The notes under the pieces were generated by a model. The model worked only from the letters and a program-made list of their open reading frames with translations, made no database searches and was not told the DNA's origin. From assembly GCA_017499595.2 (NCBI GenBank), contig CM039005.1:806001-870000 (forward strand): DNA of 64,000 nt, written 5' to 3'. The position numbers and the translations under genes were made by a program. Position 1 is the stretch's first letter. Every line of letters begins with the position of its first letter. Positions 6,152 through 36,919 of this stretch are shown here, in pieces. The DNA comes from Psilocybe cubensis. Its lineage: Eukaryota.

Positions 6152-6186
6152 TAGTTGAGGACAATCAAAGACATCAATTTTCGTAT

Positions 6187-6505
6187 TGTTGAACGACTAT
6201 TATTAATAAAGATCACGTTCGACCGTGTGACTCTCAGAGTCATATGATAAGTCATGTGAATAGATTACTAAGTAGATAGATGACTAAGTACTATACAGTA
6301 GTTACTGTCACTAGTCACATGTAACGCACTCTAGGTGTATATAAGGGCGACGCTAGTGCCCTCTAATAACAAGCGGTTTTCACAACCCACTCGAGTAGCT
6401 ACAACTCAAGTAACACGACCCAAAGGGTAAGTATTAAGTCAAGTCCTTAGCCACTGCGTACATAGACTGTGTAGAGTAGTTTTGGGCACATTATGCTGCT
6501 CAACA
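6187..6505 (+). repeat. 5' LTR
   Basis: TGTTG..CAACA; identical by eye to 12105-12423; TATATAA at ~6338-6344. Confidence 0.97.
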
Positions 6506-6517
6506 GGTTATGGGCCC
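6506..6517 (+). promoter_or_regulatory. Primer-binding site GGTTATGGGCCC (internal half of initiator tRNA-Met type)
   Basis: Directly after the 5' LTR; complementary to the tRNAi-Met anticodon arm, as in Drosophila copia and yeast Ty5. Confidence 0.85.
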
Positions 6518-6792
6518 CGTAGCCATAACGACGCAGGCTTGTTAGCCTTGCTGTCGACGGCACTGGCCTAGGGACAATACTTGCCCCCATGCTGCTCTGA
6601 AAGATAACGCCTATTTTGGCGATCTAGATGAGTGTGCAAAAGATCTTAATCTTGATTGGATCTTAGATCTGATCTTGAGATTGATTGGGCCTGACCAGCC
6701 CAACTGTTTCCTTTCTATTCTAAGTTCAGGATGTGAGAAAAAGCCTTGCTGACTTATTCTCGTCACAGGCTCAAACTTTAAGCGCACTAAGA

Positions 6793-9700
6793 ATGTCTTC
6801 CAAAGCAACTGTATCCGTTTCCGAATTCCCCAAATTCGATGGTTCCAACTATCGTAAATGGGCTGACAAAATGCTTCCCATATTCCTCCTGACTGGCGTT
6901 GATGGGGTTATTTCTGGAGATGTCGTGGCCCCTTCTCCAATTGAAGGAGAGCCTGCATTCCCATCCCCTGTTGCTCCGGCAACAACTGTTAACGCAGCTC
7001 AAATTGAGCTGTGGAAAATCCAATTCCAACGCTGGTCGCAAAGATCTTCGTCGTTTGAAAAAGCAATGAAAGATTTTAAGGAGCAGAATTCCAAGGCACT
7101 AGGTGTCATCGCGAATTCCTTGATCCCATCTATTTGGGAAACAGTCAAGGGAAAGACCGCGAAGGGGGCATGGGATGATCTGAAAGCAAAATACGATAAA
7201 GTTCAATTTGTTGAAGTGATGGAGGATTTTAAACGCCTGACCACCTTCAAATTTGATCTTTCGGATCCTACCCCTCAGCTGGCCCGTTTCAGAGCCATCT
7301 ACGAGCATGTCAAGAAGGTCGAAAATGCGGATCTAGTATCCGAGACCATGGCATGTCTCATCTTATTCTCACGTTTACCCCTTGCGGTATCGCCCAATCA
7401 ACCGCCCTCCATATATCAAGACCTTATTAATGATTATGGAGACAAGACCAAGATTGACGACATGAAGCTGGAGGCTATCTCCGCTGATATCCGCAATCGT
7501 TGGGGAGCGCGGTTTGGTAATCTGGATGACAGGCAAAAACCTAAAAAGGGTACGACATATGACCCTAAGCCTGCACCAAAGACCGGCCCTTCCCGGGCAC
7601 CGCAACAGTCGGCTGAACGCAATACTGCGATCCGACCAAAAGGGGAACACCCCCACTATCATCCTTCGAAGACCCCTAATCAGGGACAGTCTCAGGGTGA
7701 TAATCAGGAGAAGAGGATTCGTAAGCGTGCCCCACGAGGCAAAGGCAAGCAGCGTGCACAAGGTAATACAGCCTTAGCGGATGATGTCTTTATGGCATCA
7801 ACATTGACGGTTCTCAAACCGGCAATTCCAGCTCCCACCACGTCAAGGATCATCGAGATCAACGGTAGAGGAAGTATCTCCTCCCGTACCTCTGCTCCGG
7901 CTGGGCCCTGGAGAAATCCGGACACACGCATGGCGCCATACCCGGCTCCTGCTGCTGCACGCAGCCTAGCTTCCAGAATTGGAGTAAAGCCTACTTCACA
8001 GGCACTCCAGATCATGGAAAGCGTTGCCACGAGCAGCTTACAAATTCCTTCGGATGTCTCCCTCGCAGAGAAGTTGAAGACTCCGCCCGTCAACTCTGAA
8101 ACCATTGACGATCACATGGTAGTTGATGGTGAGATCACATCTCCGGAGATCGAAAAGCTTAATAATGAGCTATTTGGACCGGAACCAAAGCAATGGGGTG
8201 ATATCCCAAACTTTGATGATCAAAGAGAACGGTCTCCTGATGTTCCTATTGAGGAACGTGTGGATTACGGAGAAAACGATGAGGATCTCTATGATGGTTA
8301 CTATGATGACCATTTTGTTGATAGGCAAGTAAGTTCTAGTTCTAGCAATTGGACCATAAATAACGCTGAGATTCCCACAGGGACTACCCCATCTAGAGAC
8401 GACAACGACTCAACAGTCGACCGGCCGGAGGAGGAGGAGTTTCCTGTAGATATTTACTACTCATTTGTACATGATGTATACCAAAAATATCTATCTCATT
8501 TTGCGTGTTGTCCAGATTGCAAAGGAAAAGGAACTGAAAAACCCAAAAAGGGGAAAGAAGCCATAACGGCTTGGTTAATGGACAGTGGTGCTAGTGTGCA
8601 CTTTACTGGCGATAAGTCTGATTTCGCAAGTTACCAAGACTTTGCTGAGAATAATCGACCTATTTCGCAAACTGCCACTACCACAGTGCCTATCACCGGT
8701 TTTGGAACAGTCTTCGTAGAAGTGGTTTCACACTCCGAGGATCTGGGACATGAAGTCCGCCGACTCCATCCTGTTCTATACATGGAACAATTACATGTTC
8801 GATTAATGTCGATGGGACAACTCCTGTCGTCCGGCATGACCATAGAAGGAACAGCTAAAGTCCTTCGGTTCTTTGATTTGCCTAAAAAATCATATGGCCT
8901 GCAGGCCAGGGCAGATTCAATTGAATCGAACAGACATCCAATGTATTGGGTGCATACGCGCATTGTCTCTGGAGAAGACATTAGCACGTTATCTTCGACT
9001 CTTCAAGAGTCAAGTGACCTTTGGCATCGACGCCTTGGTCATCCCTCTGACGATGTTCTAAGACATTTTAGGGACTCCACTAAGAACTTTCCCAAAATAA
9101 GTGTACCCAAGGACAAAAATGTCTGTGAAGGCTGCGCGAAGGGTAAAATGACTGATAAGTCATATGACGAAAACCCCAAACACGCAAAGAAGCCTTTTGA
9201 TCATATTCATTGTGATCTCAAGACATTTTCTGTTTATTCCTACCAGAAGTGTAAATACTTCATGTCCTTTTTGGACGACCACACCCCACACGTATGGCTC
9301 TACTTTCTTAAAAAGAAGAGTGATGCCGCTGCGGCTGTGAATTCTTTCGAGAAAATGGTGGAAAAACAGTACGGTACCTCCGTCAAAGAATACTTCTTTG
9401 ATAATGGCGGAGAATTCGTTAGTACCGAGTTCTTGGAACGGCTACAAAATGCCGGTACACGTGCCTGCTTTACAGCTCCCTATGCTCATCAGAGCAATGG
9501 TCGAGCTGAAAGACTAAACAGGACAATTATGGAAAAGTCTAAAGCGATGAGGCATTACGCCTGTCTACCGGATAGCTGGTGGCAATTTTGCTGTGCCCAC
9601 GCTGTCTTTCTATACAATAGGACTCCGGTAAAACGCATCGAGTGGAAGACACCCCATCAGGCCCTTAAGGGGGAGTTACCTGATGTGTCTAAAATTAAAA

Positions 9701-12045
9701 CTTTGGGATGCGCAGCTTATGTGTACCTACACAAGGAGCAGCGTAAAAATAAGTTATCACCGCGTTCCGAGTTGATGACATTCCTCGGCTACGAATCTAA
9801 TTCGGTGATGATCTTTATGAGATCTCCGAATAATGTGGTCTTTCGTGCGAACAAGGCCCTATTCGATGAAACCTTATTCCCAAAGTGTGAATCTAAGAGG
9901 AAGATTCCACCCAACACACGCTTTAATCCTCCAAAACCAAAGGGACCCTCCTTTGAAATCGGCTATGGAAGTGAGTCGACCGATTCCAATAACGACGACT
10001 TTCCAATGCCACCTCTGCCGAAAGAGACAGGCGATCAACCGAGCCCACGGTCCGCCAGTCCTCCAAGTTCTATGCCAGGGCCTAGTTCACGTCCTCCTCG
10101 TGACGATGACGATGATCAGGATGACGATCAGGGATACGTAACACCTCCCACGTCAAATCAAAGACCAAAAATGCCTGATACACCTGTCAAGCCTCCGCCC
10201 AGAAGGTCGGATAGAACTCGGAAAGTACCAGAGCGGGAAGGCAATGTTTACCGACCCGGAACAACAACCGATAAAGATCGACGTAAGAAGCTGCAGACTG
10301 TTTCACACGGAGTGGCATCCGTCCCTGATTACGTGCCACTTACTCGATCTAGTAGCAATCGCAATGTTGAATCTGGTATCCCTAATTCAGGGACGGAAGG
10401 GGGAGTAGCAAACAGTCTTTTCGCGACATTACTTTCCAAACGGGTCTGCGAAATTATCTGCGCTGCTGATTATGGTCTCACAAAGGATGTCCGTGACTGG
10501 ACCCTGCGTGATTTGCTGAAATTACCAGCTGACCAACAGAAGGAATGGAGACAAGCCATGAAAGACGAGTTAGAGGTCCTCGTCAAAAGAGAGGTCTATG
10601 AGCTTGTCGATCTCCCTAATGGCCGAAAAGCCATCAAATGCAGATGGGTCTACGACATCAAAACTGATGGTTGGAAAAAGGCTCGTCTGGTAGCCAAAGG
10701 CTTCTTACAGATAGAAGGCCTAGACTACGATGAGTTATTCTCACCTGTGGTCATGCTACCAAGTGTTCGCACAATATTTGCCCTTGCCGCACTCAAAGGG
10801 TGGAAAGTCTGGTCTCTTGACGTCATATCGGCCTTCCTTTATGGGCCGTTAGACGAGGAGATATATATAGAACAGCCTGAGGGCTTTGTTCTAAAGGGAC
10901 AGGAGAAGAAAGTACTCCGGCTTAAAAAGGCAATTTATGGGCTCAAACAAGCCGCACGAGCATGGTGGTTCGAGCTAGACAGAAGTCTAAAAGAGCTTGG
11001 ATTCACCAGACTATACTCGGACGCCGGCATCTTCATCTCACGTCATACCGACGGCACGTTAGCAATAATGTTTGCCTATGTCGACGACATCCAGATCACC
11101 GGACCTAACTCCGAACTCTCACGACAGAAGAAAGATCTCTTTATGAAGAAGTGGGATTGCCGGGATCTTGGAGAATCACGGGAGTTTCTCCGCATGGCTA
11201 TTGATTATAAAGACGGCAAAATCCTCTTGAGTCAAGCCAACTATTTGGAGAAGGTTCTAACTCGGTTTGGCATGAGCAATGCTAAAGCTGCTAGAACTCC
11301 CTTACCCACGGGCTATCGCCCAATGCCGTTCGATGGTACTAGTTCGGCACAACTTCGCTCGCAGTACCAATCAGTGATTGGTTCCTTGCTTTACCTAATG
11401 CTTGGAACTAGACCTGATATTGCCTATGCAGTGACTCAGATGGCGAAGTTTGCTTCCAATCCGTCTGAAGACCACATGAACAAGGCTAAATATATTATGC
11501 GGTATCTTGTTGGCACACGCAAATATGCCTTAGTTTATGATGGGAAGTCTCGCGCTGGCCTATATGCCTATTGTGACGCCTCTTATGGAGATGACCAATC
11601 AGAGCTCGACCTTAAGCGTCGGTCTGCACAAGGCTACTTCTTTAGCTTGGCAAATGCCGCGGTCATGTGGAAATCACAGACACAGAAGTTAGTCTCAACG
11701 TCGTCTACTATGAGTGAATACATGGCACTCTCCGACTGCGCCAAAGATTGCGCATGGATCAAAAATCTATTTGCGGAACTGGCCAAACCAATTTCCCACG
11801 TCCCAGTCTATGCGGACTCACATGGTGCAATATTCAATGCGCAGAATCCTGTGACACAAAAAGGGATTAAGCATGTGGAGATTCGCTATCATTACATACG
11901 GGAACAAATAGAGCAAGGCACACTCAAGTTATATGCAGTTCCGACTGCTGATAACGTTGCCGATATGTTTACCAAGAATCTAGGTCCTGATCTATTCTTG
12001 AAACATAGATCCGCTCTTGGCCTTGAGTTTTACCCGCTAGATTAG
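6793..12045 (+). CDS. Copia Gag-Pol polyprotein (1750 aa from ATG 6793)
   Basis: Gag N-terminus PKFDGSNYRKW; protease WLMDSGAS; integrase LWHRRLGH..CEGC, HCD, DNGGEF, NGRAER; RT KARLVAKGF, YVDD; RNase H YCDASY, EYMAL, ADMFTK. No internal stops. Confidence 0.97.
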   Translation: MSSKATVSVSEFPKFDGSNYRKWADKMLPIFLLTGVDGVISGDVVAPSPIEGEPAFPSPVAPATTVNAAQIELWKIQFQRWSQRSSSFEKAMKDFKEQNSKALGVIANSLIPSIWETVKGKTAKGAWDDLKAKYDKVQFVEVMEDFKRLTTFKFDLSDPTPQLARFRAIYEHVKKVENADLVSETMACLILFSRLPLAVSPNQPPSIYQDLINDYGDKTKIDDMKLEAISADIRNRWGARFGNLDDRQKPKKGTTYDPKPAPKTGPSRAPQQSAERNTAIRPKGEHPHYHPSKTPNQGQSQGDNQEKRIRKRAPRGKGKQRAQGNTALADDVFMASTLTVLKPAIPAPTTSRIIEINGRGSISSRTSAPAGPWRNPDTRMAPYPAPAAARSLASRIGVKPTSQALQIMESVATSSLQIPSDVSLAEKLKTPPVNSETIDDHMVVDGEITSPEIEKLNNELFGPEPKQWGDIPNFDDQRERSPDVPIEERVDYGENDEDLYDGYYDDHFVDRQVSSSSSNWTINNAEIPTGTTPSRDDNDSTVDRPEEEEFPVDIYYSFVHDVYQKYLSHFACCPDCKGKGTEKPKKGKEAITAWLMDSGASVHFTGDKSDFASYQDFAENNRPISQTATTTVPITGFGTVFVEVVSHSEDLGHEVRRLHPVLYMEQLHVRLMSMGQLLSSGMTIEGTAKVLRFFDLPKKSYGLQARADSIESNRHPMYWVHTRIVSGEDISTLSSTLQESSDLWHRRLGHPSDDVLRHFRDSTKNFPKISVPKDKNVCEGCAKGKMTDKSYDENPKHAKKPFDHIHCDLKTFSVYSYQKCKYFMSFLDDHTPHVWLYFLKKKSDAAAAVNSFEKMVEKQYGTSVKEYFFDNGGEFVSTEFLERLQNAGTRACFTAPYAHQSNGRAERLNRTIMEKSKAMRHYACLPDSWWQFCCAHAVFLYNRTPVKRIEWKTPHQALKGELPDVSKIKTLGCAAYVYLHKEQRKNKLSPRSELMTFLGYESNSVMIFMRSPNNVVFRANKALFDETLFPKCESKRKIPPNTRFNPPKPKGPSFEIGYGSESTDSNNDDFPMPPLPKETGDQPSPRSASPPSSMPGPSSRPPRDDDDDQDDDQGYVTPPTSNQRPKMPDTPVKPPPRRSDRTRKVPEREGNVYRPGTTTDKDRRKKLQTVSHGVASVPDYVPLTRSSSNRNVESGIPNSGTEGGVANSLFATLLSKRVCEIICAADYGLTKDVRDWTLRDLLKLPADQQKEWRQAMKDELEVLVKREVYELVDLPNGRKAIKCRWVYDIKTDGWKKARLVAKGFLQIEGLDYDELFSPVVMLPSVRTIFALAALKGWKVWSLDVISAFLYGPLDEEIYIEQPEGFVLKGQEKKVLRLKKAIYGLKQAARAWWFELDRSLKELGFTRLYSDAGIFISRHTDGTLAIMFAYVDDIQITGPNSELSRQKKDLFMKKWDCRDLGESREFLRMAIDYKDGKILLSQANYLEKVLTRFGMSNAKAARTPLPTGYRPMPFDGTSSAQLRSQYQSVIGSLLYLMLGTRPDIAYAVTQMAKFASNPSEDHMNKAKYIMRYLVGTRKYALVYDGKSRAGLYAYCDASYGDDQSELDLKRRSAQGYFFSLANAAVMWKSQTQKLVSTSSTMSEYMALSDCAKDCAWIKNLFAELAKPISHVPVYADSHGAIFNAQNPVTQKGIKHVEIRYHYIREQIEQGTLKLYAVPTADNVADMFTKNLGPDLFLKHRSALGLEFYPLD

Positions 12046-12104
12046 TCCGTTCATGAAAACAAGTAGAGTCCCGCCTTATGGCGCGCGCACCACTTGAGGG
12101 GGAG

Positions 12105-12423
12105 TGTTGAACGACTATTATTAATAAAGATCACGTTCGACCGTGTGACTCTCAGAGTCATATGATAAGTCATGTGAATAGATTACTAAGTAGATAGATG
12201 ACTAAGTACTATACAGTAGTTACTGTCACTAGTCACATGTAACGCACTCTAGGTGTATATAAGGGCGACGCTAGTGCCCTCTAATAACAAGCGGTTTTCA
12301 CAACCCACTCGAGTAGCTACAACTCAAGTAACACGACCCAAAGGGTAAGTATTAAGTCAAGTCCTTAGCCACTGCGTACATAGACTGTGTAGAGTAGTTT
12401 TGGGCACATTATGCTGCTCAACA
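12105..12423 (+). repeat. 3' LTR
   Basis: Preceded by the PPT and followed by TSD CGTAT. Confidence 0.97.
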
Positions 12424-15068
12424 CGTATCTCAGGAATGCGAATTTTCTGGCAAAAACTAACGACGGATTCGAACTCGGACGGTCAAATAGCGTCTAAAAA
12501 CACACTTTTCATAAAATTCCCACGAGGTTTTGACCACCGCCAAATTTTTTGGCCAAAAAATTTCAAAATATAGTCATGTTACTTGGTGCCGGGCAGCTCG
12601 GCGACTCCAAATTTTACCACGAATTACTCGCTGCACAATCGGCCGGCCTAATTTTGCTTTCTCACTGCCCACACCGCTGTAACTCGCCGTCAAATCAAGA
12701 TAAGCACCCGTAAAGCGCCAGGAGCAATTGATAAAAAAACGAATATTATTGGTGGAACATGCTTTGGAAGTGCTTCAAGATGTTTTTTTTTTTGCTCAGA
12801 TTCTGTATCCTAGCTGCTTCTTGAAATGTCTTTTTTTCAACTTCATAATGGCAGTATTGCACAGTCATCCCCAGCACTATAGACATAGTTTATGAATAGG
12901 AGTAGCCATAGCTAAAAAGTATAATAGCTTGCCAGTTCTACAGGATTCAATTTCCAATGGAATTTTCACTCAAAATGCATTCATGGCCTTGAGAGAAAAG
13001 AAGATTGAGGAAGTTATTGTTTTAGGCCGGCAATGTTCCTCATTTGCTTGGGTGGTCTGCCGTTAGGTGGCATCTTGCCGAATTTATTTAAGGGGAACGG
13101 CTCGATAATTTTTTTTGATATTTCAGGCGCGAACCCAGAATATCAAAAGCTATCTAAAAATGAATTTTTCGAGAATTTAGCGAATTTTTTTGACCACCGC
13201 CAAATTTTTTGGGAAATTTTTTCCAAAAAAGTTGAATCTGAAAAATCTGCTCGTGCAAATCGTTTAATTAGACGTAGTATTACCTATTAAAACAGTTTCT
13301 AGGCACCCTACATGTTTGTCATAGTCTACATAATTCGTGCAAAAAAATTGATGTCTTTGATTGTCCTCAACTGTATGCGGGAGTAGTTGAATTTTCTTGG
13401 CACGAACAGGGGAAGTTTGTGAGAGTGTGGCGCTTAGGTTTGTAGGTTCGTGGGCGCTTGATGCTTGCCGGATATGAGCGTATTTTATGCGGAGGTGGAA
13501 AATGAAAGGTAGAATATGACAAGACTCCTTTTTAGATTTTTTGCCGGTTCATAATGAATGAGATTCGACTCCTTGTCAACGCTGGCTGTCGAACGGCCAA
13601 AGTCGATGTCAAAGTCATCGACGTCACGGTATTTAAATGCTGAAAAAATGTTTAAGCGCATTGCATCATCGGGTCATTTTTACTTTACCCCTCTCCGTGG
13701 AAAGGTAATGCAAGAATTGAACTAGCATCTAGAGACTAGATGTCTGGAAAAGGTTTCTTCAGAGTCTACTGAGCAATAAAAATAGATCATATCATCATCA
13801 CGGTCATCTCCATCTTCGTGTTCTCCATCTCGCGTTTGAACTTGATTAACCTGCCTGCAATATCAGTACCCCAAAATCCCAAAAATAAATGGTATTGTAG
13901 TATCATGAGGTATTGGCTCATCTCAAAGACGCGTTTCGATAATTTTCCTTGTCATACAGTAAAGTGAACGTGTCGGAAAGTGACTGCCCAATGGTAACCA
14001 AATGAATTAATAACACGGCGGTCTCCCCAGCAGCCAGTCTAGAAATCGTTAGTCCTGGTGCGCAATCAAACGGCAAAATCGAGTCTTACACTAGGTTCAA
14101 AAGCGCTACCGGCTTCAGCATGGATCACAAACTGTTGATGGAGGAATAACATCAATGACGCCAGTCCACCAATTTTGACATCCGGTGCCTTTGGAGATCA
14201 AGAAAAGTGCGACGAATCCGTACTCGTCGGCGGGGCGCGAGTTCAGAGCTCTGCAAAGCGCAGGGCGGGATGGAATCAGTAAGAGAATGCGCTGTAAAAT
14301 GGTGGCGGGGGTAAATTGAATGGGTCACTGGATGGGTCACAACGCTACAGGGCTTGAATAGAGTTCTCTTTACTTGCATCAGAAGCTGCATGGGACTGGA
14401 ACATTTGTTCCGAGATGGCGGGGCATTCGGTTGGCCGCCTCTAATTTGAAACTCGGGGGTCGCACCCTTGGCAGAGGCATTAATCGACGCCAGGACAAGG
14501 TCGTTCTGTTGCTGGGAAAATTGGCACTGGTTCTGAGGACAGTGGTCGACGTCGGGCATTCGAGAAACAAAGCTGGTGGTGACGCTCTGTGAGAGCAGGA
14601 TTCGGAACGGCAGAGATTCGGCACCAGTGAAGATTTACAGCGAGAAGTGATGGGATTGATGGGACCTGTGTCTTGACACGCGGTGATTGGTCTTCGGACT
14701 TGTCATGTCTGCTGGCTACAATTTCAAAAATACAAACCACACTTGTTTCTCACCATTCTATCTTGGCATGTGGCCGCTCTCAACGTCTGTGTTTTCCTAT
14801 TGACAACGTCCACCATTCTCTCACTGCTCAGAGGACGGTCTGTCTATCTCTCAATCCTGTGTTGACCTTTCACGAGCGCGCCATTTCAGGGTGAGTATCA
14901 TTTAACTCTATCAACCCCATCATCATCACACCACAGGACACAGCTCAGATTTGCTGACCTATCAATTCCTTTCTGCAGATTTTGACGAGGCGATACCAAT
15001 TGCCTAGATTATCTGTTTACACACTCTTTTAGTACACCACATTCGTTTATACACATACACCGCACAGC

Positions 15069-16462
15069 ATGTTCACTCCTCCTCCCTCCCCTCGGCCATA
15101 TACTTCGAGAGAGCCCCCTGCACCAGTTCCAGTGCTCCCTCTCGAAAAGCCAATGGAAATTACGGAATCACCTCTGCCCCACCATTCCTCCTTCCCCACG
15201 CATGAAGGTAAACGAAGGACGGGACGCCGGTACCGATGGGCGGTCCTCGTTGCGCCTATGCTGCTCGTGCTATTGACAGCCTACAGGGGTTACGTCTCGT
15301 CGGCAACCGTCTCGACGAGCACACTACGATCTCTGTCATGGCGTGGTCTCGTCGCGGAGGGATCAACATCGTGGAGCTCACACCTCAAGAGATCACCTGA
15401 ACCGGAACCCCAAGCCCCTTCTCCAGTTTCTCAATCCTCCTCCTCCTCCTCTTCTTCTTCATCCTCAAGCTCGTCGTCATCTGCTTCGAGCTCCGCAACA
15501 TCTACCGCTTCCCAAACCATACCCACTATACCCTCCTCGCCTCCCGTCCTTCCTACCCCGTTCCCCCAGCCGTTCGATGACAACATTGCTTCCAACTTTA
15601 CGAGCACCACATGTGCCACATTCTTCGCCAACATGACCAGTGCGACACCTTTCAGATCCTGTCGCCCATTCTCGCTGCTCCTCACATCAAATGCATTTAT
15701 CATTGTACGTATGATCGCGAGTGTTTTCGTTGAACTGCTCTGACCTGATTTTGTGCTGTGTAATGATGATAGGCCCAAACCAATTTGACTCTGATGAACT
15801 CGCTGATATGGGGGACGTGTAACACAAATACAGGATTTGACCAGTGCAAAGCCAACATGGGATGGTTTGCATCGGCATTGAAAACAGCATGTTCCCAGGA
15901 GCTATCCAGCAAGAACGCAATGGCTACAACAACGCTCATGGGTATGTTTTTCAATCCCTAGATTCGGATTTGCTTGTGAATGAAATATCGTTGAATAATA
16001 CTGTTTCAAGGCCTCAACTCGTACTCTGTCATGCACGATGTCGCCTGTCTCCCTGACCCAACATCCAATACCTATTGCTACATCAACGCTGTACGCAACA
16101 GCAACCCTGCTGACCTATACTACTACAACCTGCCTTCTGGACTCACGATACCAAAAAACGCACAACCGACATGCTCGTCCTGTTCCAAGAGTATCATGGG
16201 CAAGTACCAAAGCGCGCTGGCAGACCCGGTTTTAGGCCCAGGTCTGACAGGCTTAAAAACGGCGTACCCCCCGAGTGCACAATTGAGCGCTCAGCTATGC
16301 GGCGCGGCGTTCCTGCCGGCTGCTGCGAATGTGTCGAGTGCGGCGGTGGCAGCGGTGCTGAGAGGACCGTCGTGGGCATTGATAGGTGGCCTTGGCGTTC
16401 TGGTGTGGATGTTGTCCGGTTCGAATGGTTTGAACCTGCTGTTGCCGCTATCGTGGTCTTGA
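15069..16462 (+). CDS. Membrane/cell-surface protein with Ser-rich linker and Cys-rich fungal domain (DUF7729-like)
   Basis: Exons 15069-15704, 15773-15941 and 16011-16462 splice in frame (PTPFPQPFD..CRPFSLLL..WGTCNT..YCY..DLYYYNLP). N-terminal TM segment and hydrophobic C-terminus (TM or GPI signal). Family name from recall. Confidence 0.8.
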
Positions 16463-17860
16463 TGGATTTGTCGGCGTTTGAGCAACCGTTCAAGTGCACC
16501 ATACTACTAAACTCACCCCATGGTCCTGCTTTCGAGGCCATGTCATGACCGCCACGCTTACTATTTCTCGCCCGGCTCGACCACACAACTATCCCGACTC
16601 ATTATAAGTTCCCTCCCCACACACACACTCACGCACGGGTTCTATTTACAGATCATCTATCATCGACAATATGACGTCCGTTCTTTTATCTACAGGGTTT
16701 ATTTGGTTTTGATTTCTGGTGTTCTGATGTTTGTCTTTTTATATCTTACCATTCTTCTTACTTTATTTCGCTTTTTAACAAAAGGGATGTCTATGCGGAA
16801 ATTTTGTGTGTACATGTTCAAAATTGTGCATACAAACGCAATAGCGCTCTGCTGCCTTTCAAGGACACTGCCACTACCGTATTGCTAACCCAACCATCCA
16901 TGTCCATCCACATCCATCCTCACCCATTTTTATCCAACCTCGACTCCCATCTACCCGTTATATCTTTCATGCTATTTATTACCTTCAACATTCGATCAAG
17001 TTCTCATTGCACTGCGCATTTTCATCCTTCTTTGTCCTCCTTCCTGCGTTGTGCCTCATCCAGAGCATAGTTGTCCTACTATCAATTCAAAGCTCTTTTC
17101 CTTTTACACCCACGGGGATTGACCTGATTTGTCTCCGCGCAATTGCACTGTCACACCTACCCATTATAAACACATCATCCAATTACACACACCCGTCAGC
17201 CGTTCGGTCGTCCTGCCTGGCATCCAACTACCTGTAGTCATTGCGGTTCGTTCCGGACATGCCAGACCGTTTCTGCGTACACGCCGTCAAAAAATCATAG
17301 AACCAATGCCTTATCCTACATCCACGTTACTTGCATCCCAGTTTCAACGTTTTGAACTTCCTTCTGATCCAAAGATGACATGGACGATACTCATGGAGGG
17401 CTGGTGCCGCCGTCTGACCTGGGATCTCGTTGCTGATGTATTGCATCTCTTCCTTGTACCTGTCATCAACCTCGTCGTTTATCCGTCGTATTCCGTTTTG
17501 GGCCCTGTGTACGTCTCGGCCCTTATAACTGCCTATATAGCGTGTGCTTTGCAGATTCCGAGCGCCGTGCGAACTTGGCGCTCGACATTTTCCACAGGCT
17601 CAGTACAAGGAGCGATAGACATCTCCGCTGTCTGTGTTGTTGTCTTGTCTGGCTCTCGAGTCTCTACGCATACAACGGAACCGCCTCTCGCGGATGATTA
17701 TACCGATGAGAGGTTTTGGCTTAGGCTTTAGCACTCATTAACATACCCGTTCAGTTTAAAGCATTGTACATATTAGGAAGTGGTATTACCGCATCCGGCT
17801 CTACCAATATACTATGCTTCGTGTCGGCGTTAAATGGGATCTTAAAGCTCGTTATGTAGA

Positions 17861-17905
17861 GACTAGTAAGTACCTGGATGTACTACATCCAGTTACTTAC
17901 TAGTC
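17861..17905. repeat. 45-bp near-perfect palindrome
   Basis: GACTAGTAAGTACCTGGATGTA-C-TACATCCAGTTACTTACTAGTC; arms match 21/22. Confidence 0.9.
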
Positions 17906-18673
17906 CATAGTATGCGCATTAAACGATCGCGACCGTCACTTTTTCTGCCACTTAAACTCGTTAATCAATAGCGGAAGAATTGTACCCGTTCTTTAGGGGT
18001 CTGTCAGTGACGTCTAACTGGTAAGTAATGAGTCTGAGGGATTCAGGGATGAGAATTGGGAGATATTATGACCGATGACGCCGTTCTATTCAAGTAGTAG
18101 ATCTGTGTGGCATCTCGATTCAGAGACTGCGTTCAAGTTCTCAATAAATGGTACTGATAGGTGGTTGGCCTAGACGGTGTTGTCACTTCAATGAAAACTT
18201 GGTGGCATGGAAGTCAAACTTCAAAGACCCACATACGACCACGTCAATATCAGTTGCATGACCTTGAGTGGCGAATGGACTTGGACAGCCTTCCTTCCCA
18301 AATAATTAGCAAAATGTAGTACAGACGTTTAGTGCTGGATGTTTTCTTGTTAATTGTACGAGGACCGGCGCGAGTAGCATCCAATTACTAGTGCTCCAAC
18401 TCTACTGACAAATGTCGAAATCTTTGATATCGATTTAGTCCTGTATTTCAAACCATTAAAGTTGGTATTCCTATTTCAGAATTTCGGCCATCTGGAAGTA
18501 CATGGTAATTGAAAAGGAAATATGACGGCATGTATGGAACAGATTTGCAAGTTTGAACAGAGGTTTGAAAAGTCTGCGAAATAAACAAAAGTACAAGGCT
18601 CTGGTATAGGCTACCACAGATTATGTGTTGTGGGGGAATAAGAGTTTCTTCTGACATGATTTGATAACGGGTC

Positions 18674-21523
18674 CTACTGAGCGATGGAGGAGTACTTAAC
18701 CTGAAGTGTCTGTCGTGTAATCTCATCAGGGGGTTCAAAGGATGGCTTCTGAGATTTGAGTCGTTCCAAAAGAGATTCCTGTTCAAGAATACTGTTGGGC
18801 GGGAGGGCTGAGCGCAATACAGAGTTGAACCTCTCCCAGAGGTTATCGGATGCCAGACGAGGTGCGTTGTTGGCCGATGTCAACATCTGAAATTGATGTT
18901 CCGCATGGTATATATTTAGATTGGCAAGGAGTTTTTGAGCCATGGGCCAATATGTCTTGTAGTTTGCCTGAACCTGGATTGCGAGTTTTGGCTTTAAACT
19001 GCCATAGAAATGCCGCTTTTCTTTTGAACAAATTGTGTAGTTCGACGTTCGCCAAGAATCAACTGCCGCATTCTTTTTGCGAATCCCTCTGTCATAAAGG
19101 AGAATCACATAGGTAAGAATCCAAATGAATGATTCCAATTCATGGTGATAAAATCTGTGGATTTTCCCTTCCCAGTACTTCTTTCTCAGGAGTTCGAGGG
19201 CCATGAATGGGACAGTCCCGGTACCGTGGGTCCCAATGACACGAGGTTCCCATTGCAACAGAGAAAGATCAAAGTCGCTCAGAACCCCGCAATTTTCATC
19301 CGGGTCGTACATGATATTGCTTAGACTAGGATCCCCATGTTCAACGTAGTTTTTCCAAAGAAATGCGTGACCTAAATAGGCATCCCATGTCAAAATCATC
19401 ATTTACAAGAAATAATCATGGCTTACATATAACGGTTTCAAGCCAAGCCTTGATAAAATCTGCACCGTCGACGGTCGTGATCTCCTCTAGCTTTCTGAGA
19501 CCCAATATCCGGAGAGTGCGGTGGCCCTTCCATCGCCGTTTAATCATGCTCCGAATACGATGAGTGGTGCATCCCGGCACGTCTCCATAAAACAGTACGG
19601 AGGGCAGGTGTTTGAGCATGGTCTTGTCCTTGTCTGCGGCCATCTTGCGGACGACCTGGATGGTTTCTCCTTCGTGCCGTCGTTCAACTTCAGGGTGATA
19701 TATCTTACAGACCATTGGTACAGATACCAATGCACCGTCTTCATCAAAACCCTGGGCCAAAACAACTGCTGTGGTGTTGCCGTTCAAGCTGTGCGGTGGG
19801 TGTGATAAAAAATTATCCATGTTAACTACAACCGTTGCGAGTGTGCTGCCATGATCATCTGGAACCCAAACGTTCCGCAGATGTCGCTTCAAATTGAGTT
19901 TGACCCCAGGTTCAGACACTAGTTCTAACGGTTGAACAGGCATCTTTGTTTCCATGAATTGGCTTACTGACCTGGCGTATTCCTAGACACCGGCTCGTTT
20001 TCAACCCTATCTATAAATTGGGGATTGAGACAACGAATAATCCCCCAGTCTTCCGCGCGGAAACGCTGGAAAGCAAAAAGGAGAACGAGGAAGCGAGCAA
20101 AGTCTGCAAAGATGCTGAGGCCGTCAGACTGAACGACACCCTGACGATCATGATACCAAATCCACACATGGCCATCTGTTCTGATGAGCATGCAAATCTT
20201 GTTGTAGACGAAAGAAAGAACATACCAGTGAAGAGTAAATTAATGGCATGGTGAACCCCGGCGCTATAAGACATCATTTCGAGAGCGTAAGATGCGCACT
20301 GCACACGCCCGTTAATTACCCGCTGTTTTTTCATTTCAACCTTGGTTGCCTTTCTTTTCGAATTATTGACTATGGCAGAACTTGTAGATGTGGATGCTGA
20401 ACTTGTGGGCGTCTCTGAATCCGATTCCCTTGGTTTCTTCAACGCCAAAGAGTTCTCCGCCAATAATCCATCATCCGAAGCGCGTTCCGAGTTACAGCCT
20501 TCTGTGTCAATAGACAGTGGAGGTTTGGCTTCGAAGAAAGTACGTGCTGCAACGCTTGTGAAGAAATTGTGATTTCAAACTGTCTGTTGTCACGGACTTG
20601 CCTTCTGCAGGTATACCCTCATTGACTAATTTAAAGTCCAGGCACGAGAGGATATCAACCCATTCGAAACTCTTCCGGGGCGGTTTGTCAAAGTTCACAT
20701 CGACTTCTAGACCCCGCGAGGCCGCACGTAAAGCAGCAACGAGAGACGTGATGACAACATCCGGCTTACAGTGAATATCCTGCGTGTCCTTGCAGTGGGT
20801 CGTGATATGGCTGGGATCATTGCGATGAAAGCGAATGTTGAGGGGATCTTTCTCTCGAAACCGACGCTTTGAATCTACATAAGCTAGGCGTCGGAGAGCG
20901 TTGTTGCATAGACGAACAAATTCCCCATAGCGGGACGATTCCGCTTTACCTTTGGCAAATGCGGTCGCGCTGAAATAGAACGTCGTAATTTACATCGTAG
21001 TTTAACCGAATGTAAAACTCACAAATTCTCCAACTTTTTAATGAGATCCCCATTGTTGGCAACGGGCAGCACTGATTCGAGAGCCTCGTTCAGGAGCTCA
21101 TCCAGTATGTTATCCCGTTCTTGGATCAGTTCTTGCTCCTTCTGTGACCCAAACCGAGTGTCGTCATCCTTATCATCGTTATGCTCAAGTTGTGTACTCG
21201 CTGTTTCCCCCAAAGTCTCAACCGACTCAGCAGCTGTACTAACTCCTCTGATTGTAGTGTTTCCATTTCCCACCAAATTTTCCTCATAGCCTTTCAATTG
21301 GAGCTCCTCGATCTCTTTTTGAATGACGTCCAAGCGCCTCTTCTTTGGGTCATCGTCTCGAAGAACAAGGGAGAGAAAGTACTTGAGAATAGCGTCGAAG
21401 CTGCACTTGGTTGAATTCTCTGCCTCAAGATCTCTCAAGATCGTCCCTGATATCCTCCTGTCTTTGTATTTATCAATGTATGTAAGCTATTGAAAACTCG
21501 ATGACGTACTTGTATTCCAGCAT
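18674..21523 (-). CDS. FunK1 protein kinase, copy 2 (5' end uncertain)
   Basis: ORF pieces 21019-21438, 20507-20698, 20011-20463, 19964-20191, 19416-19955 and 18674-19402 are highly similar to copies 1 and 3, with the same intron positions plus a GC-AG intron at 20547-20601. Confidence 0.8.
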
Positions 21524-28168: not shown

Positions 28169-28240
28169 GGTCTTGTAGTGTAGCGGTTATCACACGGGAT
28201 TCTGATTCCCGTAACCCCGATTCGAATTCGGGCAGGACCT
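28169..28240 (+). tRNA. tRNA-Gln (anticodon CTG), intronless, with A53-U61 in the T-stem
   Basis: Acceptor stem GGTCTTG/CAGGACC, D-arm GTG..CAC, anticodon arm CGGGA-TTCTGAT-TCCCG, T-arm CCCGA-TTCGAAT-TCGGG; T6 run about 47 nt downstream. Confidence 0.93.
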
Positions 28241-31255: not shown

Positions 31256-34200
31256 ATGGAGGTCTCAGCGATACAGCCTGTGGTGTCGCCTGTGCCTAGC
31301 GCTCATAACGGACGCCCTCAGAACAAGGTCAGTCACTTTTTCCCAACCGTTATTTGGACATGCACCGATCGTTGCGTTCAACTTTGTCTTTGTGCTTACT
31401 AACTGCTATGTTGCTTGTGTAGACCCGTGGCTCCAGCACACATACGAACAAGCTTTCCTTTTCCCAAACGATCTCGTCACTCAAGGGCATCATTCGGATA
31501 CCGAACCGCAGGAAGCTTTCCACACCCCGCACCCACTTCCACTCTCAGTCGCAAGACGATGCGGACAGCACCAAGTCCACCTCCAACCCCCATTTCACCT
31601 CCAGACCGCGGCCCACGCACGGCCTCTCGCACTCGCTCGACACGCAGGCCCACCTGCACTCGCGCACGCGGAGCACGGGTACTGCTGCGTCCGATGGGAG
31701 TGGAGATATCGACGGCATTATCTCTGATACTGAAGACTACGATAAACAACAAAGGCGGAGGAGCAACATCAAGAATGACCCGTATGCGCGGTTCTCGCGC
31801 ACGGCAGAGGGCCTGAACTATACTTACAAGCCATATATGTCCCAGCCGATGCTCGGCGCTGAGCTCTCCCGGGGCACTGGCGGGGATGAGTTGGTCACTG
31901 GTTATGATTCGGAGTCTGGCTCTGCTTCAGGGTCGGGATATGGAGGGGGTGGTCGTTCGCCTGTTGGGACCGGTGAGGGTGGAGGGAGGCGCAGCGGAGA
32001 GCACCATCAACAGCATGCTCCTTCAGGGTTTTCGGCAACTTCACCACTAGCGCTGCCACCCCCATCGCCCTCTCCGACTCCAGTCTCATTGTCATCTCCT
32101 ACTGCTACCCACCCGGCGACGGAGGTAGCGTTTTCTTCGGGTGGAAAAGTGGAAGATACGTTAATCCAAGTGCAGCACGGCGATCAGGGAGATGAGGGGG
32201 AGAAGGAGGGGCATATTAATGATCTCTATGATGGCAAAGCTGGATGTTCTCTTAACAACGCCGCACCTAGCGACACGAACACGGACACGAACACAAACAC
32301 GAACATTGGTACTACTGCTAATACTGCACAATCTACGACTCCAGCTCAAATTTCATCGTCTACATCTACACCTACGTCAACTATTCAAACTAATTCACAT
32401 GCCCGCTCCAACTCACCCTTGCCATTATTACCTCTACCTGATGGACCCTCTTCGTCGACGTCTGCGTCTACACCCGGAGCAGCATTGCGCCCGCGTAGCA
32501 GCAACGGCAGCGGTAGAACACCTGCACCCAGACGTGCATTACCGCCTCCACCACCTGAATCACCAATATCTGCATCATCTTCTGCGTCAGCCGCCCCAGA
32601 GGAACAGCATGTTGCGGCTAGAGCCATTCCATCCCAGTCTGAGCCCAGCTACACTGGTAATGGCGATACCGACGATCGGAGCCCTCCGATAGACCCGCTA
32701 GCCACCCCGCGCCCCGCGTACTCGACCTCATACACACGCTTCGCGCACACCGAGTCTCCGCCGTCGTTTCCGACACCGTTGCCCATCGTCACTCTCACCA
32801 CCCCGTCGTCGCCCACCACTCCTTACACTCACACTCCCCCCCATCTGTCGGCAGTTGACCGGCCCGCGATATTATCGTCTTCACTATCTTCGTCCTCTGC
32901 CACATCCACTTCGACAGTCACTTCGGCGACGTCGTGGAGGACGGTTACTGAATCTATGGGGTCTATGAATGCCACTTCCGCAAATAATAATAATAATAAT
33001 AATGGCAACAGCAACGACAAACCGAAACCGAAACGTCCGCCGCCGAACCACCGGTTCAGCATGACGTTCATGAGCAGCATGAGCTCGGGCGCGGCGCCGC
33101 CTGTATTACCTGTGCTACAGCTGCCAGGGATCAGGTCGTTCTCATCTTCGTCGGCATCGGCACAGAGGAGCAGGAACGACACGGGGCCACACTCGCCTGG
33201 AAGTGCATCGAGCGGCGAGGGCGAGGGCGGCTCGCCGGGTAAGAAGTTGAGCGAGATGCCGGCGCTGCCGTTGAAGGGCACGGGCCGCGGGGTGCGGGGG
33301 CACGAGGAGGTGGACGATCTCGAAGATGACGACGAGGACGGTGATGAGGAGGAAGATGAGGAGGAAGATGAGAATGCACAGTACCGCGGCCACGCATTTT
33401 TGGATGCGAGCGTCGAAGTGCCGTCGCGCACGAGCTTTAGCAGCGAGATGACCAGCGGGAGCAGTGAGGTTGGTGATGGAGATTATTCACATTCGTCGTC
33501 GTATTTTGTGGAGAGGGATGGGGATAGGACGTTTGATTCGGCTTGGGGCTCTGGTGGATCGAGTGCGAGTGAGACGATGGCGACTGTCGGCTCGAGCTCG
33601 TCAGCGCGCTCTCTGGGTATGGGTATGGGTAGCAGCTTGAGCGAGTCGAGCTCGGCATCAGGGTCGAGCTCTAGTTGGGGTTATCATTTGCACTTGCAGC
33701 AGCAGCAGCATCGCCAACAACAACAACAACTGCAGCAGCAGCAGCGAATCGTGTATGCAGAGCAGGACGAGGAGGAGGAAGATCCAAATGCCGATGCGAA
33801 GAGTACAGGGTCGCGCACGTCGTCGTACAAGACGGCGCTGGGTTCGATGCCGCCGTCGCCTGCTGCTCTACCCCCCGTCCCTCTTCCATTGCCACATTCA
33901 ATTCAGTCCCCTCAACATCAGGCGCAGTCGATATCCAAGTCAAAACATCTCCCTTCGATAGCAACGTCTTCTTCACAGTCCAGCGTACACCAGCAACAGC
34001 GCAAACAATCTCCGTTGGAAACGTACTTTGGCGACCCGACACGTCCGTCGGAGAAACGTTTCTCGCGCACGCCGCATCTCCCACCTGTAGAGACGTCCAA
34101 GCTCGATTTGGATTTCTCGTTCTTGGATCGGGATCCGTCGGAGAGCAGTAGCAGCAGTGGTAGCCTGGCAAAGGGGAAAGGAAAGGGAAAGAGTAGAGGC

Positions 34201-36919
34201 TTGACGGATGATGCGGGGCGCACGCCGGTTGGGAGGAGGCCTGTCAGCACACCATGGGGTGGTTCGAAGGCCGGCGCGGGTGGTGATTATTTCCAACAGC
34301 AGCGCGAAAAGGAGCGAGATCGGGGGAGGGAGAGGGAGGAAGAGATGGGTTCTGGAGCGGCATCATCCTCTTCCCCTGTGCGGACACCTCGTGCAGACGA
34401 GTATCATCGTCATACGATGAATCTGCCTACTCCAGTACCTGTGCAGCGTACACCGTCGTTTGTGCGTGGGCAGCAGATAGTGTCGCCGCCGCCTTTGGTG
34501 AATAGATCGATATCTGCTGCCAATCGCTTGAGTATCAATTTCAATGGAGGAGGGCTAGGAGGAGTGTCGCAGCATCCAGGGATCTACAAGCAGGCGTCGA
34601 GGAGTTTAATTGACGTGCATGCTGTAGAGAAGAAGGAAAGGATCGAGCAGATGGTGCGGGAGGATGAGGAGGCGCAGGAGGTGGACAGAAGGAGGAAGGT
34701 GAAGGAATATAGGATGAGTCTGCGGGCGTCTGCTACTGCTGCGGCTGCCGCTATTTCCGGGAATGGGACTATTGCTGAGGAGAATGGGACGGAGAAACGA
34801 GGGCATAAAAATAGGACGACGATGGAAATAGACGCAAGAGGTGATGTGTTGGCTGCTGGAATAAATGCTGGCAGCACTGGTGCAGCATCTACTTCTGCCA
34901 ATGATACCGACCCGGCTAATAGGTTGCTGCCACCGCGTTCGGCCGATATTGTTACGAGAGAAGGAGACGAGGTATCTTTTAGTGGGGAAGGCTGCTCCGC
35001 TTCCGGCACGATAGGACGGACAGGTGCAGGAGGAGGAGAAGCAACAGCATCAGACCGCAATGGTGACGATGCAGGTTTAGCTGCTACTGCCACTACTGCG
35101 ACTGCTACTGCTGGTGCCAGCAAGAGGATCAGCATGGCTCCTGCCTACGACGCGCTCTCATACCCGCTCCGGCGGCGGCGCTCGATGCCGACGTTCAACG
35201 CCACGACGACCGCGCCTCCGCCTTACCCGGAATTTGCGCCGCATCCGCAATCTGTAAGCTGGATGAGCGTGCAGATCCAGCCGCGCGAGGACGAAGGGCG
35301 GGAGGAGCTGCCGCCGTACTCGAACTCGATCAAGCTGGCCGCGATCATGCCGCGCAAGATGGAGTTCTCGAAGCCGGGTATTCAGGCCAAGGACAGAAAA
35401 TGGCGTAGAGTGTTGTGTGTGCTCGAGGGCACGATGTTCAAGGTGTATAAGGCGCCTGCTGGTGCGTCGGGTGCTGGGGTGCTGGGAGAGTGGTGGGAGA
35501 GCAAGGTCGGGGTGGGGGATGTGGCTACTACGGCGCCTTTGACTACGACGACTTTTGTGAGTGGTAGTGGATCTGGGCATTCGCGTCGGCCGTCGGCCTC
35601 GACGTTGGCGATTGCGGGCATACCGGGGGTGAATCCGGGAGATTATGCGACAGGGAGGGGCGAGGAGGGTGTAAGGAATGCGATTGCTGCTGTTGAGGAG
35701 GCGGAGAGGGCGGAGGAGATGGAGCGGGAGAGGGGCCTGATGAGGGCGAGGAAAAGTGGAGAAGTTGAGCCACGGCAGGAACAATCTCAGCAGCAGGTGT
35801 CACCGATTGAGAGTGGGAGTGCTGGAAACTCGTCTGGGCAGCTGCATCCTCCTGCGTTGCATGTTCAAGGCCATCATAATCTACAACACGACCAACCCAG
35901 CAGCAGCAGCAGTTCATACAGCGAAAACCACTCAGGAGGCGGTGGATTGTTACCTGCTACACGATCTGCATTGAATTTGGCAGTTCAGCTACTCAAACCA
36001 GGTTCATCGCGCCATGGAAGGTCTAGCAGTGATGTGGGCCAAAATCATAGTCCAGTTCGAGCTCATTCGCCTAGGTCGTCATTGAACATCCCGAGAAGTG
36101 GGAGGACGACTCCAACGTCGTCATTACCTTCCAGATCACCTACGCCATCGCCTTCTGTAAACAATTACTCGAGGCCATCGACACCTGCTACGTCAGTCTC
36201 GACTTCGCATTCCCACTCGAATTCGCACTCGGCGTCGTCCGAAAGATCAGGGTTCCGCGTAGGCGCTGGGTCGATGGCGAGTGGTTCTAGCTCTGGTCGA
36301 GCTAGCACCTCGCGGCAGGCGGCGCGCCCCAATGTGTCTATTGTTTCGCGAGAAAAGGAAAAGGAGAAGGAAAAGGAGCGGATGCTCAAACCTGACGAAG
36401 CGGATTTGATTAGGGTGTATACCATGCAAAACGCGGAGAGCGGACTGGGTAGCGATTATTTAAAGAGGAAACACGTCATTCGTGTGCGGTTGGAGGGCGA
36501 GCAGTTTTTGCTGCAGGCGCAAGATGTGGATAGCGTTATAGCGTGGATTGAGGTGTGTGTTTTTTCACATTGTATCGAAGTCAAATTTGATTGATGTTGG
36601 ATTTGCGGCATTCAGGGACTGCAATCTGCGACCAACATTGCTTTGGATCTAGACGAGAGGCCTATGCCTCGTGGACCCATCTTTCCAAGGTGTGTAGACG
36701 GTTTCTGGGTCACTCTGACTATTTATGACTTTATTGACGTGTTCATTCCTCTCGCGGGATTGCAGACGGAGGAGACGCCGACGAGTTCAGCCTCCACCTA
36801 TTAATACCGACACGGCGAATATGCCAGCTGCGAATCCGTCTCCTACTGGACAAACCCCGGTGACTGCCAGCCATCTCGCAGCCCCTCTAACGCGGTCTGC
36901 CGGACGACGTCTGCGATGA
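31256..36919 (+). CDS. Large low-complexity protein with split PH domain (YHR131C-like family)
   Basis: Exons 31256-31327, 31423-36552, 36616-36689 and 36766-36919 are in frame; [24 protein letters not shown] and [47 protein letters not shown]. Confidence 0.85.

Follow-up and report, generated by a model that had tools for sequence, protein, structure and literature searches.

Single-open reading frame (ORF) retroelements have met the need for an excess of Gag lineage by lineage, with ribosomal frameshifting in Ty1, protein degradation in Ty5 and splicing in insects and plants. The closest described case is barley BARE1, where a facultative intron of 104 nt starts 2 nt past gag and its removal shifts the reading frame into a stop 3 codons further on (Chang et al. 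2013, PMC3735527). Roughly one in two of its capped poly(A) transcripts is spliced, and the spliced form has no genomic copies (PMC3735527). In EVD of Arabidopsis and many other copia elements, an intron of ~300 nt around the protease is removed, with a frameshift, a new stop and early polyadenylation (Oberlin et al. 2017, PMC5580714), and splicing in Drosophila copia produces an RNA of 2 kb (Yoshioka et al. 1990, cited in both PMC5580714 and PMC3735527). Here we examine a candidate for a switch of this kind in a mushroom. A 64,000-nt stretch of the Psilocybe cubensis genome (NCBI GenBank assembly GCA_017499595.2, contig CM039005.1, positions 806,001 to 870,000 of the forward strand), hereafter the window, to which all coordinates refer, carries an intact Ty1/copia element at 6187–12423 on its plus strand. 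Within the single gag-pol ORF of this element, 52 nt at 8329–8380 have the appearance of a short host intron.

The P. cubensis element resembles BARE1 in its single gag-pol ORF and in the placement, at the end of gag, of a putative intron of about host size that is coding when retained. Its predicted removal would likewise shift the frame, meet a stop a few codons on and leave a nearly full-length RNA for Gag only. The barley intron differs in its length (104 nt versus 52 nt), its CAG/GTAT donor, its plant host and the distance to the new stop (3 versus 22 codons). Moreover, BARE1 splicing was demonstrated by reverse-transcription PCR and complementary DNA clones, whereas that of the mushroom element is only predicted, and BARE1 differs further in drawing a capped, spliced and an uncapped, packaged RNA pool from two promoters (PMC3735527). 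With the EVD/shGAG system, our element would share a splice that begins after Gag, a frameshift with a new stop and an mRNA dedicated to Gag, and it shares a donor like the host U1 site. The Arabidopsis-type introns, however, average ~300 nt, remove the protease and are spliced in coupling with premature polyadenylation, in contrast to a stretch of 52 nt located upstream of the protease (PMC5580714). Drosophila copia is also a single-ORF element that obtains its Gag excess from a spliced RNA, but its intron of ~2.9–3 kb removes all of pol without the frameshift trick. Ty1 and Ty5 are, like the present element, fungal members of the Ty1/copia group and face the same problem of the Gag:Pol ratio. 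Neither uses splicing; Ty1 relies on +1 ribosomal frameshifting between two ORFs, and in the single-ORF Ty5 Pol is degraded after translation (both cited in PMC5580714 and PMC3735527).

The idea of a splice switch is therefore of a known kind, because BARE1 does the same with its 104-nt intron. The initial annotation of the locus had named copia and EVADE as precedents, which the cited papers bear out, and had overlooked BARE1, the closest precedent with the same mechanism. Full-text literature searches returned no fungal case of Gag-only splicing, a result that is not proof of absence in print. The word ‘fungi’ has zero occurrences in PMC5580714, and a paper on fungal copia elements reports single ORFs and, in its available portion, does not describe splicing (PMC4427930). 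If real, the P. cubensis case would be new in its kingdom and in an intron that is very small and matches those of the host in size.

The gag-pol ORF opens with the ATG at 6793 and runs to 12045 (1750 amino acids, protein P0001). Position 8329 is therefore the first base of codon 513, and the candidate donor, GTAAGT at 8329–8334, sits on a codon boundary, where it reads as the Val-Ser codons GTA AGT; it is the only GTAAGT in the sense ORF. The first exon would end in the peptide YDGYYDDHFVDRQ. At the donor the window reads GATAGGCAA followed by GTAAGTTCTAG, and at the acceptor ATAACGCTGAGATTCCCACAG followed by GGACTA. A branch-like ATAAC lies at 8360–8364 (branch A at 8363, 17 nt upstream of the acceptor); CTGAG at 8366–8370 (in GCTGAG, 8365–8370) would be an alternative branch. 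Both precede a pyrimidine-rich tract with the acceptor, ATTCCCACAG, at 8371–8380, which ends as CCCACAG at 8380. When retained, the 52 nt encode VSSSSSNWTINNAEIPT plus one base, and the full 1750-amino-acid polyprotein is read through to 12045. Their length is not a multiple of 3, and excision shifts the frame: in silico translation of 8381–8449 then gives 22 codons, GLPHLETTTTQQSTGRRRRSFL, and the stop TAG at 8447–8449, for a Gag of 512 + 22 = 534 amino acids. The protease Asp-Ser-Gly follows the donor by 84 codons, and the linker in which the donor falls, past the basic portion of Gag, is acidic and poorly conserved. The initial annotation had listed the same CAA|GTAAGT donor with its G at 8329, the ATAAC and GCTGAG branch candidates and the CCCACAG end at 8380, and these are present as it read them. 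Its other structural claims held as well: the site falls between Gag and protease (Gag domain at amino acids 87–196, donor at codon 513, Asp-Ser-Gly at amino acids 597–599), the element is of the single-ORF copia type (one 1750-amino-acid frame with Pfam matches for Gag, protease, integrase and reverse transcriptase), and translation yields both the unspliced in-frame Gag-Pol and the spliced 534-amino-acid product ending at TAG 8447–8449.

We tentatively interpret 8329–8380 as a facultative short intron of host type, carried in the one gag-pol ORF of a Ty1/copia element that was active recently, a reading that we place slightly below an even chance. Most transcripts would then stay unspliced and serve as genomic RNA and as mRNA for Gag-Pol, and a fraction would be spliced from GTAAGT at 8329 to CAG at 8380. 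The resulting frameshift would fall 84 codons ahead of the active site of the protease, translation would end 22 codons on, and the spliced RNA, making only the 534-amino-acid Gag, would supply capsid in excess over the enzymes. The sequence itself shows the anatomy of the element, the signals, the frames and the fit to the size of host introns; that the spliceosome would use the site, that it would do so partially and that the product would matter for transposition is inferred. The anatomy and context of the site, as analyzed here, are fully consistent with a Gag-only splice switch of the BARE1 type.

The element housing the site bears the marks of a young insertion. Its two long terminal repeats (LTRs; 6187–6505 and 12105–12423), each of 319 bp, are 100% identical, and a 5-bp target-site duplication, CGTAT, flanks them at 6182–6186 and 12424–12428. 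Both LTRs have TG…CA ends, and the 5′ LTR contains TATATAAG at 6340–6347. The gag-pol reading frame is uninterrupted and contains no recoding site between gag and pol. Because the LTRs are identical and the frame is open, the copy must have inserted very recently; being intact and young, the sequence has therefore been under recent functional test. Pfam searches of P0001 detected Retrotran_gag_2 (amino acids 87–196), Pol_BBD (the protease barrel, 594–681), gag_pre-integrs (733–786), rve (integrase, 799–897) and RVT_2 (reverse transcriptase, 1267–1504), that is, the Ty1/copia order of Gag, protease, integrase and reverse transcriptase, with integrase before reverse transcriptase. No separate RNase H family was found in P0001 at an E value of 0.01; ~245 residues lie past RVT_2. 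The protease active site Asp-Ser-Gly (amino acids 597–599, 8581–8589), within the Pol_BBD match, is part of an LMDSGAS motif that is kept in a relative, P0014. At the ends of the internal region, a candidate primer-binding site, GGTTATGGGCCC (6506–6517), adjoins the 5′ LTR, and a putative polypurine tract, GAGGGGGAG (12096–12104), assigned by its position, adjoins the 3′ LTR. GGTTATGGGCCC looks as if it could pair with the initiator tRNA-Met at its anticodon stem-loop, which would presumably allow half-tRNA priming in the style of copia and Ty5. A tRNA gene scan of the window found no initiator tRNA-Met gene, its sole tRNA gene being tRNA-Gln(CTG) at 28169–28240.

The 64-kb window holds no second copy of the element, as judged by blastn and tblastn. 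To look beyond it, we used contigs placed on 6506–21500 from two DNA runs with the same species label (X1 and X2) and from two sets labeled ‘RNA?’ by guess (X4 and X5). Summed contig depth over the element was ~320–540 in X1 and ~200–315 in X2, versus ~79–100 and ~24, respectively, in the host flanks. Such depth is not a copy number and was taken solely as a sign of repetition, here a sign that the element family is repeated in both runs.

Two neighboring host genes allowed a comparison of the candidate with local introns. The X4 and X5 contigs skip eight short stretches in these genes, and we therefore conclude that they come from RNA; no such skips occur in the X1 and X2 DNA contigs over the two genes. 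The plus-strand gene at 14719–17464 has three GT..AG introns of 88, 68 and 69 nt, and the minus-strand gene at 18.7–21.4 kb has five, of 55, 53, 51, 55 and 53 nt. Their eight donors read GTGAGT, GTACGT, GTATGT, GTAAGC, GTCAGT, GTATGT, GCAAGT and GTGAGT, the acceptors CAG, TAG or AAG, with branches of the CTGAC/TTGAC type or weaker. The 52-nt GTAAGT…ATAAC-N16-CAG stretch fits this set as a textbook member, and the claim of the initial annotation that its length is typical of host introns is borne out by the range of 51–88 nt in the eight RNA-supported cases. We also applied a fixed search rule that asked for a GTRNGT donor and, at 45–95 nt, a YAG acceptor, with a TRAY branch 8–35 nt from the end. 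Over the RNA-covered ~2.7 kb of one host gene (gene A), it picked two donors, both of true introns (2/2), and none in exons, and it recovered two of the eight true host introns. The rule is thus strict and, in this tiny sample, specific.

The same minus-strand gene yielded two further observations. Its intron at 20547–20601, with GCAAGT…CAG, is an apparent GC-AG intron. Across 18500–21500, depth in the DNA runs is raised and the RNA contigs differ greatly from the window (for example, by 44 and 62 letters in pieces of ~430 and ~640 nt), which suggests that the gene belongs to a family with multiple copies or with many alleles.

Relatives of the element were examined for treatment of the site. 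The closest database proteins are P. cubensis gene models (63–87% identity), followed by models from P. cyanescens and Agrocybe pediades. One P. cubensis model, P0009 (JR316_0003285), represents a diverged copy from which exactly the homologous 52 nt are excised; it ends in VDRQRLSHLEMITTQQSTGWKRRSSL, in the same shifted frame and at the same stop. The same donor recurs in three other models, where the join is in frame, from …DRQ to IPIE or IPTE: P0016, which is an older model and shares a 90% cluster with P0009, and P0012 and P0017, both from a second locus, JR316_0010953. The implied intron is 42 nt long and ends at the GAG corresponding to 8368–8370. Two proteins, the P. cubensis model P0010 and P0014 (a Logan protein, 69% identical), read through the stretch; in P0014, the Val-Ser of the donor and the Thr-Gly of the acceptor are both retained. 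Judging from these models, standard fungal gene finders see an intron at the site, and the donor appears to persist in at least two diverged, decayed P. cubensis loci. P0012, P0016 and P0017 also drop a second stretch after …EEFP, within 8446–8515 (coordinates deduced from the proteins). In P0012 and P0017, it apparently runs over 70 nt from a GTAGAT overlapping the shifted-frame stop to the CAG at 8513–8515, and P0016 rejoins slightly further upstream. The models thus seem to show gene finders carving the linker between Gag and protease freely. A Gag-only model from P. cyanescens, P0011 (677 amino acids), was set aside as a further case, because its tail and the linker do not align, which leaves no way to locate its end with respect to the donor.

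Wider searches added few relatives. Protein searches returned five matches among 7996 scored candidates (best 29% identity), eight among 7999 and four among 187. When P0009 was compared with 1.84 billion representatives, five matches were obtained, and along the shifted tail only P0009 itself aligned; this library, which is clearly poor in the element family, yielded no spliced protein derived from a transcript. Related DNA was absent from nine pattern matches in viral_contigs and from 110 and 356 pattern matches in two scans of metagenome_contigs. In the DNA runs, all contigs over positions 8304, 8316, 8322, 8355, 8365 and 8442 differ from the window there, and none of the differences listed falls in the donor, ATAAC or acceptor; the chance that six changes miss the ~21 signal bases in ~139 nt is ~37%. 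The joint 8328^8381, which would mark a retro-copied spliced form, is not listed in X1 or X2, a weak absence as contigs drop rare variants.

The diverged copies in X1 and X2 differ from the window mostly by C>T and G>A. In X1, these two changes occur at 151 and 136 places, versus 14–82 for each other kind, and the residues replaced in the P. cubensis models P0009, P0016 and P0010 include D>N, E>K, P>L and T>I. The older copies look like products of decay resembling repeat-induced point mutation or driven by methylation.

The main alternative to a facultative intron is a chance motif. GTA AGT would then merely encode Val-Ser in a weakly constrained acidic linker, with a CAG 52 nt on; the stretch would be unspliced or spliced at noise level, and the Gag excess would arise otherwise, for example by degradation of Pol, the route described for the single-ORF Ty5 (cited in PMC5580714). 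We consider this account quite possible, if on the doubtful side of even. Much of it draws on the observations that weigh against a splice switch, which we take together here. GTAAGT is not enriched: the 5.25-kb sense ORF contains one, as composition predicts (~1.3 expected). In 2000 synonymous-codon shuffles that kept the protein and its codon usage, we counted stretches with a donor, a TRAY branch and a YAG at 45–95 nt, and such a stretch appeared somewhere in the ORF in 28.5% (GTAAGT donor) to 76% (GTRNGT) of them. Other intron-like stretches have not been purged from the ORF, with four loose candidates versus 4.5 expected. The 52 nt behave as ordinary coding sequence, with 11 of 18 encoded residues kept in P0014, about as in the surroundings, and a GC content of 40%, barely below the 42% and 47% of the flanks, offers no compositional contrast. 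At the splice site itself, the last exon base before the donor is A, whereas the consensus is G. The P. cubensis models disagree, with one 52-nt frameshifting excision, three 42-nt in-frame excisions and read-through in P0010. All five are treated as predictions, because the available text of the genome paper names FunAnnotate v1.8.4 for the models and mentions no transcript evidence (PMC8220353). The X4 and X5 contigs do not cover 7006–12005 and are uninformative on expression and splicing of the element. Finally, a spliced mRNA would bear an untranslated tail of ~3.9 kb and might be unstable.

Against a chance origin stands the position of the motif, the one place in the ORF where a frameshifting intron would be useful. 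When the shuffles were evaluated over the linker between Gag and protease (amino acids 330–590), intron-like stretches arose there in 3.3% of them for GTAAGT, 7.0% for GTRAGT and 8.0% for GTRNGT (7.2% if a frameshift was also required), figures of 3–8% that are not clean P values because the interval was picked after the site had been seen. With a loose donor set, the proportion rose to 46% (36% frameshifting). Furthermore, every signal matches the host introns of the RNA contigs, and the two rule-passing stretches in the covered host gene are both real introns. Codon choice at the donor is not significant: GTA accounts for 18% of Val codons and AGT for 14% of Ser codons, and one of 12 Val-Ser dipeptides uses GTAAGT versus ~0.3 expected. 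A regulatory hairpin at the site was not apparent (fold z = −0.44, with 65 of 200 shuffles folding as well). We regard the shuffle outcome as suggestive, not decisive; the statistics mildly favor the splice switch over a chance motif.

A second alternative accepts splicing and denies its benefit. The stretch could be a cryptic, non-adaptive intron whose excision yields a dead-end RNA that is degraded or, where RNA interference operates, marks the transcript for silencing. Splice signals as good as those of host introns speak for this explanation, and the long untranslated tail past the new stop would suit it. Stalled spliceosomes have also been proposed as a trigger of small interfering RNAs for transposon RNAs of Cryptococcus (cited in PMC6643885). 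A perfect donor and a normal length, however, argue for efficient splicing instead of stalling, and the site is tolerated by an element whose identical LTRs mark it as freshly transposed and which is seemingly repeated in related strains. The primary paper for the stalled-spliceosome model in Cryptococcus is reportedly Dumesic 2013. On balance, we consider a cryptic intron unlikely. Even less probable is use of the donor with another acceptor, either the GAG at 8368–8370 (42 nt, in frame, giving Gag-Pol minus 14 residues), to which the joins of …DRQ straight to IPTE or IPIE in P0012, P0016 and P0017 point, or the TAG at 8394–8396 (68 nt, another Gag-only form), which passes the search rule, given that GAG is absent among the acceptors of the eight host introns, that 42 nt fall below their 51–88 nt and that the models, as predictions, may simply prefer open frames.

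The facultative intron in gag-pol may have a companion in the leader. A second GTAAGT occurs in the LTR at 6427–6432 (copy at 12345–12350), downstream of the TATATAAG box, and a strong intron 3′ end follows at 6749–6768, with CTGAC, a 12-nt pyrimidine-rich run and CAG, 25 nt before the gag ATG. Joined, 6427–6768 would form a leader intron of 342 nt, far above the host range of 51–88 nt. An intron from GTAAGT at 6427 to CTGAC…CAG at 6768 may accompany that between Gag and protease, remove the primer-binding site and thereby separate translated from packaged RNA. A short, low-depth X4 contig lies near 6712–6738; the RNA-type contigs otherwise matched the element with LTR pieces. Because the short contig covers 6712–6738, at least some RNA or DNA is unspliced at the leader.

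The RNA-type contigs (X4/X5) contain a whole LTR, matching 12105–12423, between GAGTC copies and unrelated sequence. They indicate that another, transcribed locus of the genome harbors a solo LTR of the same family, bounded by a 5-bp duplication of its own. Within the window, a 1723-codon open frame at 31423–36594 (+) encodes a low-complexity protein rich in Ser, Pro, Thr and Gly with poly-Q and acidic runs; this is a gene of the host rather than a second retroelement.

Extended beyond this copy, the proposal would be that single-ORF copia elements of Agaricomycetes set their Gag:Pol ratio by a facultative intron of ~50 nt at the boundary between Gag and protease, a convergent, miniaturized counterpart of BARE1 and EVD and the first switch of retroelement expression by splicing in fungi. 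This generalization is possible but rather doubtful at present. For annotation, the site already has consequences, as gene predictors cut the stretch in three different ways in P. cubensis models. If the stretch is unspliced, it would usefully caution annotators that the ORFs of retroelements contain sequences that mimic introns perfectly. If the splice switch is true, the splicing solution to Gag excess would extend to fungi, shrunk to the size of a host intron, and the element would provide a clear example of a parasite tuned to the spliceosome of its host.

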